The notes: generated by a model not told the origin, from the sequence alone. Positions 5,355 through 10,312 are shown, numbered from the stretch's first letter. The stretch: 52,911 nucleotides of DNA from a virus (IMGVR_UViG_3300032242_000759:1-52911); one strand, 5' to 3'. Numbers and translations are program-made.

Positions 5355-5587
5355 TGGTTTGCTACGACCCACGACACATGACTTGGGATGAGTACTGCAA
5401 ACTCATGGCCGAGTTGTTTGCCCCTAACCAGTTGGGGTATGTGACAGAAGATAACTGGAGAGGCTGGGTCGATGCCTTGTCAGGGATCGGGAATTTCTCT
5501 AACTCAGGGATTCCAGATTCGCGTGGATTTGAGTCATGGCAAGACTGGGCCAAGCAAATGATAGGCATCTTAAATTTGGGGGCATGA
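5354..5587 (+). CDS. Small Trp-rich virion-associated hypothetical protein
   Basis: Coupled to both neighbours (TAATG and ATGA overlaps). Confidence 0.65.
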   Translation: MVCYDPRHMTWDEYCKLMAELFAPNQLGYVTEDNWRGWVDALSGIGNFSNSGIPDSRGFESWQDWAKQMIGILNLGA

Positions 5588-5868
5588 TGGACTTTCTTGA
5601 ACTGTTAAATATGGTGGCGCGTGAGGCGCGTCCCGCATTCCGTGATCTCTCTCCGATAAACAGCATGGAGATGCCGTTTGTTGAGACCGAAATTGACTCT
5701 TTGGATGGCTTGATGGTGGTCATGTACATGTCCATCATTTACGACATTGAAGACGATCTGGTCAAGGATTTCCACCCAGAAACGCCGCAACAGTTGCTTG
5801 ACTTCTTAGTTGAACACAAAAAACGCGATCCGGCATCGGTCGAAGAGGCTAAGGAGATGATCAAATGA
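5584..5868 (+). CDS. Acyl carrier protein (ACP)-like
   Basis: 94-aa acidic protein with EIDSLD (phosphopantetheinyl Ser motif) and the ET.QQLLDFL helix; ATG at 5584 overlaps the upstream TGA. Confidence 0.85.
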   Translation: MMDFLELLNMVAREARPAFRDLSPINSMEMPFVETEIDSLDGLMVVMYMSIIYDIEDDLVKDFHPETPQQLLDFLVEHKKRDPASVEEAKEMIK

Positions 5869-7413: not shown

Positions 7414-7414
7414 T

Positions 7415-10312
7415 ATGGGTGCCGTTGTAAGCGCAGTTGAGAGTGTTGTTAGCGCGGTAGGCAATGCCGTAGGCGAAGTTGTCCATGCAGCAGAACAAGT
7501 TGTAGAGACAGTCGTTAAAGACGTAGTCGAGCCTGTTGCAAAAGTTGTTGAAAACACTGTTCAAAGCGCCATCAACGATCCAATTGGAACAATTGCCAGA
7601 GTTGCTGCTGTAGCCACAGGCAACGTCGAATTGCTGCCATTGATTGGTGCGGCTGATGCGGCAGCACATGGGGCTTCTCTTGACAAAATTTTGCTTAGTG
7701 CAGGCACATCGTATGTGGCTGGTCAAATCGGCACCAATATTGGCGATCAGATTGGTACTGGGATCAGTAACAACTTTGATGTTTGCTTGAGTTGCAAGGT
7801 ACAGGATGCATTAAACAGTGGTGTCAAAGGTGCTACAGGTTCACTTCTGCGCGGTAAAAATCCTTTGTGCGGCGCAATCAGCGGCGTTGTCAATAACGAA
7901 CTTAACTGTGGCATCAAGACTGCATACAAGTGCATCACCAGCGGGTCAAGTGATTGCGGCCCTAAATGCACAGCGTTGCCTATTGTTACTCGTGGATTGT
8001 CTAATGATTGCACTCAAGGCTGTGCATCAAAAGTCAATGTTGGCGCTTTACCAACCATTTCCAACAACAACGATCAAATTTCGAATAACCAACAATGTTG
8101 TGTCTCTACCAACAATAATTTAAATAACAAAAATTGTTCCACTAATACATCGTTCCAAGGCTACCCATCCGTTCAAGCATTTTTGAATGCTCAAAATCAA
8201 AAGTTTGCTGAGGATCGCGGATTTCCTGATTTTGCAACTGGAGCAAAATTTGGTTGGGATTGCGTTGCTTACAACAATCAAAACCAAACATGTGCCACCA
8301 CAAACATCAGCCCAGTAACCGTCACTGGTCAAAAAGGAAATTGTTGTGTTGGTGCACTGCCAACGGTAATGACATCAACAAATACAAATGTATGTTGCTC
8401 TTCTAAGGTCGGTGCATTACCAACTGCAAATGTTATTGGCAATTGCTGCTCATGCATTACACCTATAACCACTGTTACAAACAAAACAAGTGATTGCTGC
8501 ATACCTGTTACCAGAGGATTGACATCGGTCACAAGTAAAACGAACGATTGCTGCGTTTGCACAAGTCCAGTAACCACCGTTACAAGCAAAACAAATGATT
8601 GCTGCGTGCCTGCGATAGGTGGCTTACCAACCGTTACTACAACGTCGAAAACAACTGATTGCTGTGTATGCACCACACCAGCAGTAACGACCACTGCAAA
8701 GACAAGTGATTGTTGCGTTCCTGCGGTAGGCGGTTTACCAACCATTGCCACAACTTCAAAAACAACTGATTGTTGCGTACCAAGCGTTCCGTTAATTAAC
8801 GTAACTGGAAAATCTGGCGATTGCTGTAATTGTTGTATTCCCGCATTGCCACCCGTAACTGTCACAGGGAAAAAAGACACCTGCTGTTGCATTCCTGAAC
8901 TGCCTCCAGTTACCGTCACTGGCAAAAGAATTGATTGCTGCTGTATCCCTGAATTACCACCTGTTACCGTAACGGGCAAAAAATCAGACTGCTGCTGTAT
9001 TCCAGAATTGCCTCCCGTTACAGTAACGGGCAAAAAAATTGACTGCTGTTGTGTTCAAGAGTTGCCACCTGTCACCGTAACAGGTAAAAAAATTGATTGC
9101 TGTTGCATTCCTGAATTACCTCCAGTTACCGTAACGGGTAAAAAAATTGATTGCTGTTGCACTGTTGAACTTCCACCTGTTACTGTTACAGGAAAGAAAA
9201 ACTCATGTTGCTGCACCACAGAGTTACCTCCAGTAACTGTTACAGGTAAAAAAATTGCTTGTTGCTGCACTACGGAGTTGCCACCTGTCACCGTAACTGG
9301 TAAAAAAATTAATTGCAGCGATTGTTGTGATTGCTGCAAAATTCCGAATATTAATTTTCCAAAATTTAGTACTCCAGTTACAAAACCCAAAAAGCCTGCT
9401 AAGAAAACAACGACTGCATTGGGTGGTCTTGGATGCGGCGCTATTCCATGGCTGAATTCCGCTCCTGAAGTTTTAGCAAATGCAAACAGCCTGAGTCATA
9501 TTCTTAAAAGAGATGAGAACAGCTTGAAAAATATTCAAAATCAAATTAACCCAGACTTGTTGGAACTTATGAAGCAGCGCGGTAATTTTGGCGGCGTACC
9601 TGAAGTGAAAATTGGTGGCTTGTCAGCATTAGATTGCTCTCCAACTGGTTACGCTGTCGGTGGTTGTGTGGCTGGTTGTACGTTTTGCATGAACCAAAGT
9701 CCAAAGTACATGCCAAGATTTGTGTGCACTGGCGCAGATGTATTGTCTGGTTCTTCTGCATCGCGTCATGCTCCAACATCATTGGCTCAACTCAAACAAA
9801 TGCGTGCCCAAATTTCCCAAATGGGGAACATGGGCGGCATGGCACATGGTGGATTGCCACGCAAATATGCAGAGGCTGCTCCCGAAGGTCACCATCCTGA
9901 ATTCATTACCGGAATGACAGGGTACTATGCATGTGGTGGCGGCACTGGTCAGTCAGACGACATTCCAGCCATGCTCCATGACGGCGACTATGTGATGGAC
10001 GCTGAGGCTGTATCTGCGCTTGGCGACGGTTCTAGCAAGGCTGGCCGCGAAGTCTTGGATGGCTTCCGCAAACAAGTTCCACACCACGAATCAACCAAAG
10101 GCCAAGCGGTTCCGGCCAAGATTGCTGATGGTGAATACGTTTTCCCCGCTGGATTTGTGACCGCTATCGGTGGCGGCAGCAATAAAAAAGGCGCTGAAAT
10201 TCTAAATGGCCTGCGTGAGCAATTACGAATGCACAAAAGATCAGCACCCACCAGTAAAATACCCCCTAAAGCGAAATCACCGCTGGACTACATCAAGAAG
10301 GCGAAAGGTTAA
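7415..10312 (+). CDS. Internal virion / ejection protein 1: Cys-rich, tandem repeats, duplicated C-terminal GTGQSDDIPAML.DG.YV domain
   Basis: 965 aa; amphipathic MGAVVSAV N-terminus; about 75 Cys by manual count; located in the ejection-gene block. Confidence 0.75.
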   Translation: MGAVVSAVESVVSAVGNAVGEVVHAAEQVVETVVKDVVEPVAKVVENTVQSAINDPIGTIARVAAVATGNVELLPLIGAADAAAHGASLDKILLSAGTSYVAGQIGTNIGDQIGTGISNNFDVCLSCKVQDALNSGVKGATGSLLRGKNPLCGAISGVVNNELNCGIKTAYKCITSGSSDCGPKCTALPIVTRGLSNDCTQGCASKVNVGALPTISNNNDQISNNQQCCVSTNNNLNNKNCSTNTSFQGYPSVQAFLNAQNQKFAEDRGFPDFATGAKFGWDCVAYNNQNQTCATTNISPVTVTGQKGNCCVGALPTVMTSTNTNVCCSSKVGALPTANVIGNCCSCITPITTVTNKTSDCCIPVTRGLTSVTSKTNDCCVCTSPVTTVTSKTNDCCVPAIGGLPTVTTTSKTTDCCVCTTPAVTTTAKTSDCCVPAVGGLPTIATTSKTTDCCVPSVPLINVTGKSGDCCNCCIPALPPVTVTGKKDTCCCIPELPPVTVTGKRIDCCCIPELPPVTVTGKKSDCCCIPELPPVTVTGKKIDCCCVQELPPVTVTGKKIDCCCIPELPPVTVTGKKIDCCCTVELPPVTVTGKKNSCCCTTELPPVTVTGKKIACCCTTELPPVTVTGKKINCSDCCDCCKIPNINFPKFSTPVTKPKKPAKKTTTALGGLGCGAIPWLNSAPEVLANANSLSHILKRDENSLKNIQNQINPDLLELMKQRGNFGGVPEVKIGGLSALDCSPTGYAVGGCVAGCTFCMNQSPKYMPRFVCTGADVLSGSSASRHAPTSLAQLKQMRAQISQMGNMGGMAHGGLPRKYAEAAPEGHHPEFITGMTGYYACGGGTGQSDDIPAMLHDGDYVMDAEAVSALGDGSSKAGREVLDGFRKQVPHHESTKGQAVPAKIADGEYVFPAGFVTAIGGGSNKKGAEILNGLREQLRMHKRSAPTSKIPPKAKSPLDYIKKAKG
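8831..9316 (+). repeat. Nine in-frame 54-bp (18-aa) tandem repeats, CCxxELPPVTVTGKKxxC; degenerate copies extend upstream to about 8310
   Basis: PPVTVTGK occurs 9 times at a 54-nt period, with synonymous codon variation between units. Confidence 0.95.

Follow-up and report, generated by a model that had tools for sequence, protein, structure and literature searches.

An uncultured short-tailed phage, whose complete genome is ~53 kb long, carries three genes arranged in a tight series on the + strand (5584-7413), which encode a divergent acyl carrier protein (ACP), a short FabF-like ketosynthase (KS), and a 143-aa protein with a predicted GNAT fold. This cassette, located between a tail hub gene and the first putative ejection gene, may give the phage a means of its own to put a fatty chain on an entry protein. 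The explanation that we tentatively favor, giving it somewhat less than an even chance, is that the GNAT gene is the core of the locus and that the ACP-KS pair is an accessory module feeding the acylation of a component of the ejection apparatus. No description of a phage cassette with ACP, KS, and GNAT was found in the published literature.

The analyzed window is the whole virus record IMGVR_UViG_3300032242_000759 (52,911 nt), which has direct terminal repeats and is 100% complete according to CheckV. The upstream neighbor of the cassette encodes a 672-aa tail hub/nozzle-like virion protein (3336..5354, +). This protein matches phrog_3287, "virion structural protein" (1.9e-27), and its 78% identical homologue in MW202545 was deposited as "phage stabilization protein"; the nozzle name is used because of this match and this deposited label. 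The next gene is a conserved 77-aa ORF of unassigned function (5354..5587, +), for which no Pfam or PHROG match was found and Atlas gave no lead. It occurs together with ACP-KS and also, in 10 relatives, directly abuts the GNAT gene, being a core member of the operon outside the ACP-KS module. The cassette itself is formed by the genes for the ACP (5584..5868, +), the 371-aa short KAS II (FabF)-like KS (5865..6980, +), and the 143-aa protein (6982..7413, +). Three genes on the same strand follow: a first ejection-type protein of 965 aa that starts with MGAVVS (7415..10312), a second one of 632 aa (10315..12213), and a third one of 610 aa (12217..14049). The ejection label is a putative one, based on position, size, and weak matches; for the 610-aa protein this is a muralytic-type match to phrog_465, "endolysin" (4.6e-05, residues 253-308).

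Read base by base, the junction between the hub gene and the 77-aa ORF is a TAATG overlap, the 77-aa ORF/ACP and ACP/KS junctions are both ATGA overlaps, and 1-nt gaps separate the KS gene from the 143-aa ORF and the latter from the 965-aa ORF. The coupling of the three genes between the hub and the first ejection-type gene, claimed in an earlier note on this sequence, is thus seen directly. The same note had reported that the genome lacks a PPTase, FabD, and FabZ, and six-frame HMM searches of the phage genome agreed, with no match to PF01648 (PPTase), PF00698 (FabD), or PF07977 (FabA/FabZ).

No Pfam or PHROG sequence match was found for the 143-aa protein, and none of the Pfam GNAT families matched any of the 37 members of its family (0/37, E up to 1). 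Its fold was found by structure comparison. The AlphaFold model (pLDDT 94.1) matched GNATs from the PDB in Foldseek with a best E of 1.4e-05 and 75 matches at E up to 0.001, all of those listed being acetyl- or acyltransferases. Comparison by VIA gave Z of 10-11.9 with rmsd of 2.2-3.1 Å over 112-128 residues, including the top match (Z 11.9, rmsd 2.6 Å over 125 residues) and RimI (Z 11.7). The protein is confidently predicted to have the GNAT fold, as had been expected for this ORF. The usual donor motif of GNATs is Q/R-x-x-G-x-G/A; in the loop after strand 4, the 143-aa family has N-A-D-T/S-x-x-N-F/Y instead. Residues N71, D73, and V99 are invariant in this family, and N77, N81, S82, T100, and D104 are conserved in at least 90% of sequences. 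In the model, these residues are found where strand 4 ends, in the loop leading to helix 3, and in strand 5, the region where GNATs bind the acyl donor.

The BFVD matches of the 143-aa protein include "Internal virion protein A" (E 2.7e-04, TM 0.52, and E 2.4e-03) and a "DUF2824 family protein" (E 2.2e-03). DUF2824 was also the nearest named cluster in Atlas; its score of 0.93, with 155 features shared, is lower than is typical within one family. The position of the gene fits that of the podovirus internal virion protein A (IVP-A, T7 gp13 class), as the class is defined in the excerpted text of PMC4819975; an acetyltransferase-family gene is found at the equivalent position in T7, epsilon15, and P22 (PMC4819975).

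The GNAT fold is also common to carrier-protein-dependent acyltransferases of small molecules, and the acyltransferase domain of NcdE was among both the Foldseek and the VIA matches. The trio could then make a small molecule: the KS would build a beta-ketoacyl chain or short polyketide on the ACP, and an amino acid, amine, or sugar would receive it from the GNAT, much as in synthases of N-acyl amino acids or acyl-homoserine lactones, with the product acting on the host or on neighboring cells. No reductase or dehydratase was found in the genome, where the dedicated search covered FabA/FabZ, and a 3-oxoacyl product is therefore conceivable. We nevertheless regard such a pathway as improbable, since the same GNAT family occupies the same place in the ejection operon of relatives lacking ACP-KS and a late structural operon is an odd site for signaling. 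Moreover, podoviruses in general have an acetyltransferase-family gene at this place, where it is tied to virion morphogenesis (PMC4819975).

The ACP gene has a second ATG at 5587. Most homologues are 93 aa long and start where this second Met stands, the length of the phage protein being 93-94 aa depending on the start codon. The ACP falls short of the gathering threshold of the Pfam PP-binding family (PF00550), with no match to it for the protein at E up to 0.1 or in six frames at E up to 10. The DSLD motif (D38, S39, L40, and D41) is invariant in 25/25 aligned homologues, and Ser39 is presumed to be the phosphopantetheine site. The family profile matched 48 PDB sequences, 47 of which are acyl carrier proteins (best E 0.0041), and the profile alignment sets the phage DSLD on the DSLD of plant and mitochondrial ACPs. 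In the AlphaFold model (pLDDT 91.2), a helix at residues 39-52 begins at Ser39. Almost all of the listed Foldseek matches of this model are ACP chains or ACP-containing complexes; the top probability was 0.99, but with E of 0.05-0.4 and TM of 0.5-0.65. The predicted fold is a small helical bundle like that of solved ACPs.

The KS matches PF02801 (63 bits, 3.5e-17) and PF00109 (29.3 bits, 8.1e-07), both above the cut-offs of 20.8. Its best PDB match is FabF (1.2e-26), and the catalytic residues align on the FabF motifs. All 34 aligned sequences have C129, H271, and K299, and at least 90% of them have H304; the intact Cys-His-His ketosynthase described earlier is borne out across the family, with a Lys in addition. 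The N-terminal domain is incomplete, PF00109 being aligned only over profile positions 98-248 of 252, and the protein is ~40 residues shorter than FabF, without the usual N-terminal segment. Four FabF rows of the alignment have a GFGG loop, whose Phe is the gating residue, where the phage family has GMGN. Identity to the FabF rows is about 21-23%, and the KS family forms its own clade apart from them with 100% SH-aLRT. With the KS this remote from host FabF, and the ACP likewise from AcpP and below Pfam detection, neither is a recent copy of a host gene that would merely raise the FabF dosage.

The shortened N-terminal part of the KS, GMGN in place of GFGG, and the location in a structural operon would also suit proteins that are no longer enzymes and have become chaperones of assembly or minor components of the virion. 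This is very improbable, as the Cys, His, Lys, and His of the KS and the Ser of the ACP have been kept in a family diverged to about 30% identity, and a decaying KS gene gets lost rather than retained with dead residues.

The genomic context was analyzed in loci fetched with the KS (80 from IMG/VR and 80 from metagenomes) and in 75 loci fetched with the GNAT. The ACP gene was found directly upstream of the KS gene in all testable loci (78/78 and 71/71), and the two are likewise adjacent for 10/10 full-length matches in bacterial or MAG contigs. A GNAT gene follows the KS in 45/80 IMG/VR and 66/80 metagenome loci, and ACP-KS lies directly upstream of the GNAT in 60/75 GNAT-fetched loci. This adjacency extends to lineages with a hub only 22-28% identical and without the 77-aa ORF. 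These counts show that the cassette does not sit at random loci.

The pair and the GNAT also occur apart. ACP-KS is absent from 15 of the 75 GNAT loci, and the GNATs there retain the same conserved stretch, which begins with the GNT..F block and ends with the NADT..N[FY] block; in one lineage (L059 and L061), only a 32-aa KS remnant is present, with the catalytic His replaced. No GNAT was found after the KS in 33/80 IMG/VR and 7/80 metagenome loci. In most of these (30 and 5, respectively), an SNF2 helicase gene precedes the pair, which is part of a replication module with a D5-type primase, a DUF2800 nuclease, and an Enc34-type SSB, and in two helicase-context loci a FabA/FabZ dehydratase (PF07977, 5.8e-30) is encoded directly after the KS. 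The KS trees require at least 3 changes of context. Thus, the ACP and KS are an always-paired, movable, and dispensable module, and "hard-wired", as the pair had been called, is too strong a term. The dispensability of the pair for the GNAT, the helicase-context loci, and the context changes in the KS trees were all counted against a tie between ACP-KS and GNAT.

Such mobility could mean that ACP-KS is an auxiliary metabolic module, functionally unconnected with the GNAT, whose target during infection is the host's synthesis of fatty acids, phospholipids, or lipid A; the strongly expressed late operon would then simply tolerate an insertion before the GNAT gene. We consider this possible but rather unlikely. 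It would account for a pair that moves as a unit among unrelated contexts, for the unchanged GNAT where the pair is missing, and for the 89.8-kb Rhodocyclaceae MAG contig L165, in which the pair has no acyltransferase nearby. The helicase-context flanks examined consist of replication genes, with no acyltransferase among those scanned, and the FabA/FabZ gene of two such loci implies true chain elongation; such a layout resembles lipid metabolism rather than modification of the virion. Phage ACPs have, moreover, already been interpreted as helpers of fatty-acid metabolism (PMC11705849; PMC5463345). However, the KS and ACP are too divergent for mere FabF dosage, and by far the commonest context of the pair is directly upstream of an acyltransferase-fold gene, in divergent hub backgrounds. 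The bacterial branch of the family also adjoins protein acyltransferases, not lipid genes.

This branch is represented by two Burkholderiales MAG contigs, L170 (890 kb) and L171, with the same ACP and a KS that shares 44-45% identity from end to end. The gene order in both is a weak HlyC-like ORF, ACP, KS, and an HlyC-family RTX-toxin acyltransferase (PF02794, 3.7e-18 and 5e-21, respectively). A gene for a TolC-type OEP is located after the acyltransferase in L170 and upstream of the cassette in L171, and both contigs encode an RTX-repeat protein (PF00353, 2.1e-44 and 9.9e-30). No HlyC matches were found in the two genomes beyond those at the cassette. Enzymes of the HlyC type lipidate Lys residues of secreted proteins using acyl-ACP (PMC8510554). 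Judged by gene content, this context is an independent link of the ACP-KS family to acyl-ACP-dependent protein lipidation, one that comes from two related contigs of one bacterial lineage (1/301 Burkholderiales genomes searched).

The phage GNAT itself gave no PF02794 match, and hhalign to the two HlyC-like proteins of L171 gave a probability under 1%. The absence of a sequence relation of the GNAT to the HlyC family or to Pfam GNAT families, and the single bacterial lineage behind the RTX link, were counted against the protein-acylation reading.

As to the acceptor, the earlier note had proposed the N-terminal Gly and Cys residues of the ejection proteins and had expected ACP-KS to co-occur with MG-starting or Cys-rich ejection proteins. 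The 965-aa protein does contain 75 Cys (7.8%) in tandem Cys-rich repeats, and the 632-aa protein 27 Cys (4.3%) with a C-terminal cluster; the 610-aa protein has none. Among relatives, however, Cys is entirely absent from 80/99 first ejection proteins and makes up at least 3% of only 12/99, and three cassette-bearing loci (L006, L008, and L009) have Cys-free counterparts of the first two ejection proteins. The Cys richness of the 965-aa protein is thus lineage-specific. What is conserved in its family is the N-terminal ~90 residues, beginning with Met, a small residue, A/G, V, and V/A. Downstream of cassette-linked GNATs, residue 2 is Gly in 66/121 unique N-termini, Ser in 43, Ala in 8, and another residue in 4. 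The expected co-occurrence was therefore not observed, and neither an MGxxxS myristoylation signal nor S-acylation of Cys can be the conserved purpose of the cassette. Eukaryote-type N-myristoylation would call for an invariant Gly2, which these proteins do not have.

In this particular phage, the chain could still be attached to Gly2 of the 965-aa protein and/or to Cys clusters in this and the 632-aa protein, which would suit the MGAVVS start and the 75 and 27 Cys. A residue 2 that is always small fits removal of Met and a free alpha-amine, and Gly2 is more frequent with the KS upstream (66/121) than without it (2/12), the rows being related and the second group small. We think this assignment quite unlikely, given Ser and Ala at position 2 within the cassette-bearing clade and the loci that keep the cassette without Cys in the matching proteins; metal binding or disulfide formation could explain the Cys clusters equally well.

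The broader reading of the cassette as a virion-protein lipidation system stands in part: the GNAT fold, the recurrent synteny, and the HlyC/RTX link speak for it, while the Gly2 and Cys acceptors and the hard-wired arrangement do not. In the form that we favor, the core gene would be the GNAT, as the counterpart of the small acetyltransferase-like IVP-A found at the head of the ejection module in short-tailed phages, and the ACP-KS unit would be an accessory inserted immediately upstream of it. The phage ACP would be primed by host AcpS and loaded with malonate by host FabD, the phage encoding neither enzyme. Cys129 of the KS would take an acyl chain and either condense it with malonyl-phage-ACP or hand it to the phage ACP, which would create a private acyl-ACP pool made late, alongside the virion proteins. 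The GNAT would use this pool to N-acylate some part of the ejection apparatus; where relatives lack ACP-KS, it would draw on a host acyl donor. In the first ejection protein, the most plausible acceptor would be the conserved N-terminus with its small residue, or else a Lys. If so, the acyl chain would help this protein to enter the host envelope.

Several known systems resemble parts of this scheme. The closest by position is IVP-A, although we know of no enzymatic activity for any member of this class. The 143-aa gene shares with it the location between the hub/nozzle and the first ejection-type gene, a similar size, and the GNAT fold; it differs in having no Pfam or PHROG match, and its fold matches to named IVP-A models are weak (TM about 0.5). 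In front of the phage gene there are also dedicated ACP and KS genes, a feature that the excerpted text of PMC4819975 does not describe for IVP-A. Alteromonas phage R22Y and Erythrobacter phage R6L likewise have an ACP of their own, annotated as an auxiliary metabolic gene and with an unclear role (PMC11705849; PMC5463345). In the excerpts of these papers, however, the ACP stands alone among non-structural genes, with no ketosynthase mentioned and no stated link to virion genes or an acyltransferase (PMC11705849; PMC5463345).

The pair shares with FabF and AcpP the thiolase-type fold family, the Cys-His-His triad plus Lys, and the DSL serine of the ACP; it differs by the shorter KS with its GMGN loop and separate clade and by an ACP below the Pfam threshold. 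Dedicated pairs of an ACP and a KS that feed a special acyltransferase exist in rhizobia, namely NodF/NodE with NodA and the AcpXL cluster with LpxXL. Like the phage pair, these comprise a specialized ACP and a KAS-type KS without other FAS enzymes, and they use the remaining FAS of the host to provide a private acyl-ACP for one transferase. In contrast to the phage cassette, they are bacterial, they acylate a chito-oligosaccharide or lipid A rather than a protein, and their acyltransferases are not of the GNAT fold.

The known toxin-activating acyltransferases (TAAT), to our knowledge, use a housekeeping ACP as the donor and have no dedicated ACP-KS. The phage GNAT further differs from HlyC in not belonging to PF02794 and in lacking an invariant His in place of the His/Asp dyad of TAAT. 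The RTX toxin-activating acyltransferases HlyC, CyaC, and ApxC, as well as CdiC, carry out acyl-ACP-dependent Lys lipidation of secreted or delivered proteins (PMC8510554). The phage locus resembles these systems in having a small acyltransferase beside the gene for a large protein that engages a target membrane and, on the phage side putatively, in using acyl-ACP as the donor.

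At 52,911 bases and with direct terminal repeats, the window constitutes a complete virus record. Its genes are those of a short-tailed phage, including fibre-like proteins, a terminase (29718-31151), a portal (34243-36690), a capsid-type protein (39741-40655), and an endolysin (787-1215). The gene for a hub- or nozzle-like virion protein of 672 aa (3336-5354) is directly followed on its 3' side by a 77-aa ORF (5354-5587, plus strand). Next, all on the plus strand, are genes for an ACP (5584-5868), a ketosynthase (KS; 5865-6980), and a 143-aa protein (6982-7413), and after the 143-aa ORF the same strand encodes four proteins of large or medium size (965, 632, 610, and 328 aa). 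Read base by base, the junctions from the hub gene to the gene for the 965-aa protein are, in order, one TAATG overlap, two ATGA overlaps, and two gaps of 1 nt each. The tight coupling of the ACP, the KS, and the 143-aa ORF described in the earlier note is thus borne out as written.

The ACP is too divergent in sequence for a Pfam match, and none was found in a search of the protein or in a six-frame search of the window. In an alignment, its D-S-L-D motif is invariant in 25 of 25 homologues. The ACP profile matched 48 PDB sequences at a best E-value of 0.0041; 47 of these are ACPs, and the serine motifs coincide in the alignment. The closest folds to the ACP model (pLDDT 91) are also solved ACPs, with weak E-values of the kind usual for small helical proteins in fold searches. 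The KS exceeds the threshold for both Pfam KS domains and matches FabF structures at 1e-26. This protein is 371 aa long, has no usual N-terminal segment, and in the alignment carries GMGN at the position of GFGG in the FabF rows. Across a family with identities down to about 30%, Cys129, His271, and Lys299 show no variation, and His304 varies very little. Two trees separate this short-KS family as a clade from four FabF sequences, with 100% SH-aLRT support. Non-enzymatic roles for the KS and the ACP are highly improbable.

Six-frame HMM searches of the whole genome detected no gene for a PPTase, FabD, FabA/FabZ, or a second carrier protein. Synthesis of a small-molecule product by the ACP, the KS, and the 143-aa protein together is considered quite improbable.

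The 143-aa protein has no sequence-family match in Pfam or PHROG. Its model (pLDDT 94) has the GNAT fold, as the earlier note had expected for 6982-7413. In a Foldseek search against the PDB, the best E-value was 1.4e-05, and all of the matches shown are acetyl- or acyltransferases. The VIA comparison gave Z-scores up to 11.9, with an rmsd of 2.6 A over 125 residues; the many tied matches include protein N-alpha-acetyltransferases, RimI (Z 11.7) being one. The better matches to viral models are unnamed proteins of uncultured phages, and models named 'Internal virion protein A' and 'DUF2824' match the fold at E-values from 3e-04 to 2e-03. Judged by its predicted structure and its position, the 143-aa gene is best read as the window phage's IVP-A-position GNAT, a known kind of gene that heads the ejection module of podoviruses at the position of T7 gp13. 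To our knowledge, the activity of such genes has never been established.

In total, 1,689 proteins of the KS family were found at E-values up to 1e-05 (90% clusters), and the best 120 of these have lengths of 314-378 aa and identities of 61% or more. Stretches that encode the KS number at least 555 in IMG/VR and at least 481 among JGI metagenome contigs. The only true relative among the GenBank phages in INPHARED is the uncultured record MW202545, and the search gave no cultured host. The remaining 19 INPHARED matches, 24-30% identical and mostly in unannotated records, were taken for ordinary FabF-type genes and rejected as relatives of the cassette. IMG/VR single-protein scans with the deep KS representatives P0287 and P0290 found no relatives, and a scan with a third one, P0299, found only one already known locus.

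An ACP gene lies directly upstream of the KS gene in all testable loci (78 of 78 in IMG/VR and 71 of 71 in metagenomes) as well as in all ten full-length matches on bacterial or MAG contigs. The commonest context is that of the window, with a GNAT gene after the KS in 45 of the 80 loci from IMG/VR and in 66 of the 80 from metagenomes. Likewise, among 75 loci fetched by GNAT alignment, 60 have the ACP-KS pair directly upstream of the GNAT, including lineages that have no 77-aa ORF and a hub protein only 22-28% identical. The cassette is real and widespread, and its gene identities and synteny are solid.

The ACP-KS pair is absent from the other 15 of the 75 GNAT loci, and in 10 of these 15 the 77-aa ORF abuts the GNAT gene. 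The GNATs of loci without the pair retain the same conserved motifs. Two loci, L059 and L061, keep a 32-residue KS fragment just upstream of the GNAT gene (L061:4886-4981), with the catalytic His replaced and the pair otherwise lost. Together, the absences, the retained motifs, and the abutting 77-aa ORF indicate a core operon that includes both the 77-aa ORF and the GNAT; by this comparison of loci, the ACP-KS pair is a dispensable, accessory two-gene insert. For the 77-aa ORF, the Atlas offered no further clue.

A second context was found among the loci with no GNAT after the KS (33 of 80 in IMG/VR and 7 of 80 in metagenomes). An SNF2-type helicase precedes the ACP-KS pair in 30 and 5 of these loci, respectively, and the module also has a D5-type primase, a DUF2800 nuclease, and an Enc34-type ssDNA-binding protein. 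The phages with this helicase context share almost nothing besides the ACP and the KS with the window phage. As a separate observation, the C-terminal part of the ORF at 44094-44714 of the window is 66-74% identical to an ORF of about 88 aa present in 29 of 34 helicase-context loci. The GNAT family was not found in five helicase-context virus records, each only 21-47% complete. At least three switches between the GNAT and helicase contexts are required by the two KS trees; the main helicase-context clade branches from a basal polytomy in one tree and lies within the GNAT-context clade, with 82% support, in the other. In two helicase-context loci, L145 (6130-6561) and L146, a FabA/FabZ dehydratase gene immediately follows the KS (PF07977, 5.8e-30).

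These data bear on the main rival to protein acylation, in which the ACP-KS pair would be a metabolic helper that acts on host lipids and would have come to lie where an insertion is tolerated. Such a helper is favoured by the helicase context, its FabZ companions, the events of ACP-KS loss, and the GNATs that stay unchanged when the pair is missing, and we regard it as possible, if on the unlikely side.

The earlier note had proposed acylation of virion proteins, with Gly2 in an MGxxxS pattern and/or Cys residues of the ejection proteins as acceptors. Among 133 unique N-termini of the protein encoded after the GNAT, 121 have a KS upstream and 12 do not. With a KS upstream, residue 2 is Gly in 66 of 121, Ser in 43, Ala in 8, Val in none, and another residue in 4; the corresponding counts among the 12 are 2, 4, 2, 3, and 1. 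Residue 2 is thus nearly always small, a pattern that fits removal of the initiator Met and a free alpha-amine and does not require Gly. Cys residues were counted in 99 first ejection proteins that exceed 400 aa and have a KS upstream: 80 have none, 7 have less than 1%, and 12 have at least 3%. Cys richness is therefore a trait of few lineages, and loci L006, L008, and L009 have the full cassette and zero Cys in the counterparts of the window's first two ejection proteins. Neither proposed acceptor is conserved, and, given these counts, the conserved purpose of the cassette cannot be eukaryote-type Gly2 myristoylation or Cys S-acylation.

In the window itself, the 965-aa protein has 75 Cys residues (7.8%) and many tandem copies of a Cys-rich unit of about 18 residues (8300-9400), and 27 Cys residues occur in the next protein. 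Instead of acylation, these residues could serve metal binding or disulfide cross-linking. Gly2 myristoylation or Cys S-acylation is possible in the window phage itself; use of these particular acceptors there, which overlaps with the main reading, is distinctly unlikely.

In a scan covering prokaryotes at one genome per species, ten full-length members of the short-KS family were found. Three of the ten, on Polaromonas, Pseudomonadota, and Balneolaceae MAG contigs, have the phage arrangement with a GNAT, and one has the helicase arrangement; the others are on short contigs or in different contexts. Two Burkholderiales MAG contigs, L170 (890 kb) and L171, encode KSs that over their full length are 44-45% identical to that of the window. 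In both (L170:5277-12361 and L171:1229-7548), the ACP and the short KS lie between two HlyC-like genes, one of them a weak HlyC-like ORF. An HlyC-family RTX-toxin acyltransferase is encoded beside the KS (PF02794, 3.7e-18 and 5e-21, respectively) and an RTX-repeat protein nearby (PF00353, 2.1e-44 and 9.9e-30). L170 has a TolC-type OEP gene downstream of the acyltransferase, and in L171 such a gene is found upstream of the cassette. Both are type I secretion/RTX loci, and their HlyC-family matches are the only ones in the two genomes. In the tree, the two KSs group with one metagenome representative; this clade lies within the short-KS family and outside the one holding all the phage loci examined. 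Of 301 genomes sampled from the order of these MAGs, only one, G006, had the short KS.

HlyC-type enzymes use acyl-ACP as the chain donor and Lys residues of membrane-engaging proteins as acceptors, and CdiC acts likewise on a contact-dependent inhibition effector (PMC8510554). The phage GNAT/ejection loci and the Burkholderiales HlyC/RTX loci are unrelated settings, and in each of the two the same private ACP-KS pair is found next to a small gene of protein-acyltransferase type and a gene for a large protein that is delivered. This bacterial context, though thin and drawn from one lineage, is the strongest new support for protein lipidation. We know of no private ACP-KS pair for RTX acylation in the literature. 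Profile comparison found no relation between the GNAT family and the two HlyC-like proteins of L171. A proposed likeness of the N-termini of the two RTX proteins to those of phage ejection proteins was dropped; an HMM of 90 unique phage N-termini gave no match at E-values up to 10.

Other contexts were also observed. On a Piscirickettsiaceae-binned phage-like contig (L173:5651-7605), the ACP-KS pair is followed by a gene for an OmpA-like outer-membrane beta-barrel protein (PF13505, 2.2e-13), not a GNAT. On an 89.8-kb Rhodocyclaceae MAG contig (L165:5657-7128), the pair stands alone between ferredoxin-reductase-like and ECF sigma factor genes, and neither phage nor acyltransferase genes were detected in its vicinity. 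The MAGs with phage-type ACP-KS contigs (L164-L173) are mostly Betaproteobacteria-type Burkholderiales (Polaromonas, Rhodocyclaceae, Nitrosomonadaceae, and Burkholderiales bins). This gives a hint of such hosts for the clade, a weak one because the binning of phage contigs is unreliable.

In the lipidation scheme that we tentatively prefer, host AcpS and FabD would prime and load the phage ACP, and the KS would build or load a chain on it. With this private acyl-ACP as donor, the neighbouring GNAT would then acylate some part of the ejection apparatus; in relatives without the ACP-KS pair it would draw on a host donor. Such a mechanism is plausible and has an independent bacterial parallel; the whole scheme is put at somewhat below an even chance. 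In a bolder form, it is the first ejection protein that would be lipidated and IVP-A GNATs would generally be protein N-acyltransferases, to which this large freshwater clade would have added a private ACP and KS that supply a custom acyl-ACP donor, as the Burkholderiales branch would have done for an HlyC-activated RTX protein. This form is rather unlikely; if true, it would provide a biochemical function for T7 gp13 and P22 gp14-type genes.

Fixation of the ACP-KS pair before an IVP-A-position gene in hundreds of uncultured phages leads to a specific hypothesis open to testing, namely that an entry component is acylated in an acyl-ACP-dependent manner. The hypothesis bears on how ejection proteins of short-tailed phages exit the capsid and insert into two host membranes, and on the role of the small acetyltransferase-like gene (T7 gp13 class) that heads the ejection operon. 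The Burkholderiales ACP-KS-HlyC-RTX loci represent a second candidate system in which a dedicated ACP-KS pair feeds protein lipidation; for RTX biology, too, this would be a novelty. If instead the metabolic reading holds, the pair would still be among the commonest unexplained enzyme pairs of freshwater phage genomes.

Going by titles and abstract openings, no description of the phage ACP-KS pair, its cassette with the GNAT, or ejection-protein acylation was found in the literature; supplementary gene tables could bear on this point. Phage ACPs alone are described as helper genes of unclear role (PMC11705849, PMC5463345). The IVP-A GNAT, dedicated ACP-KS donors, and acyl-ACP-dependent protein lipidation are the known kinds to which the cassette relates.
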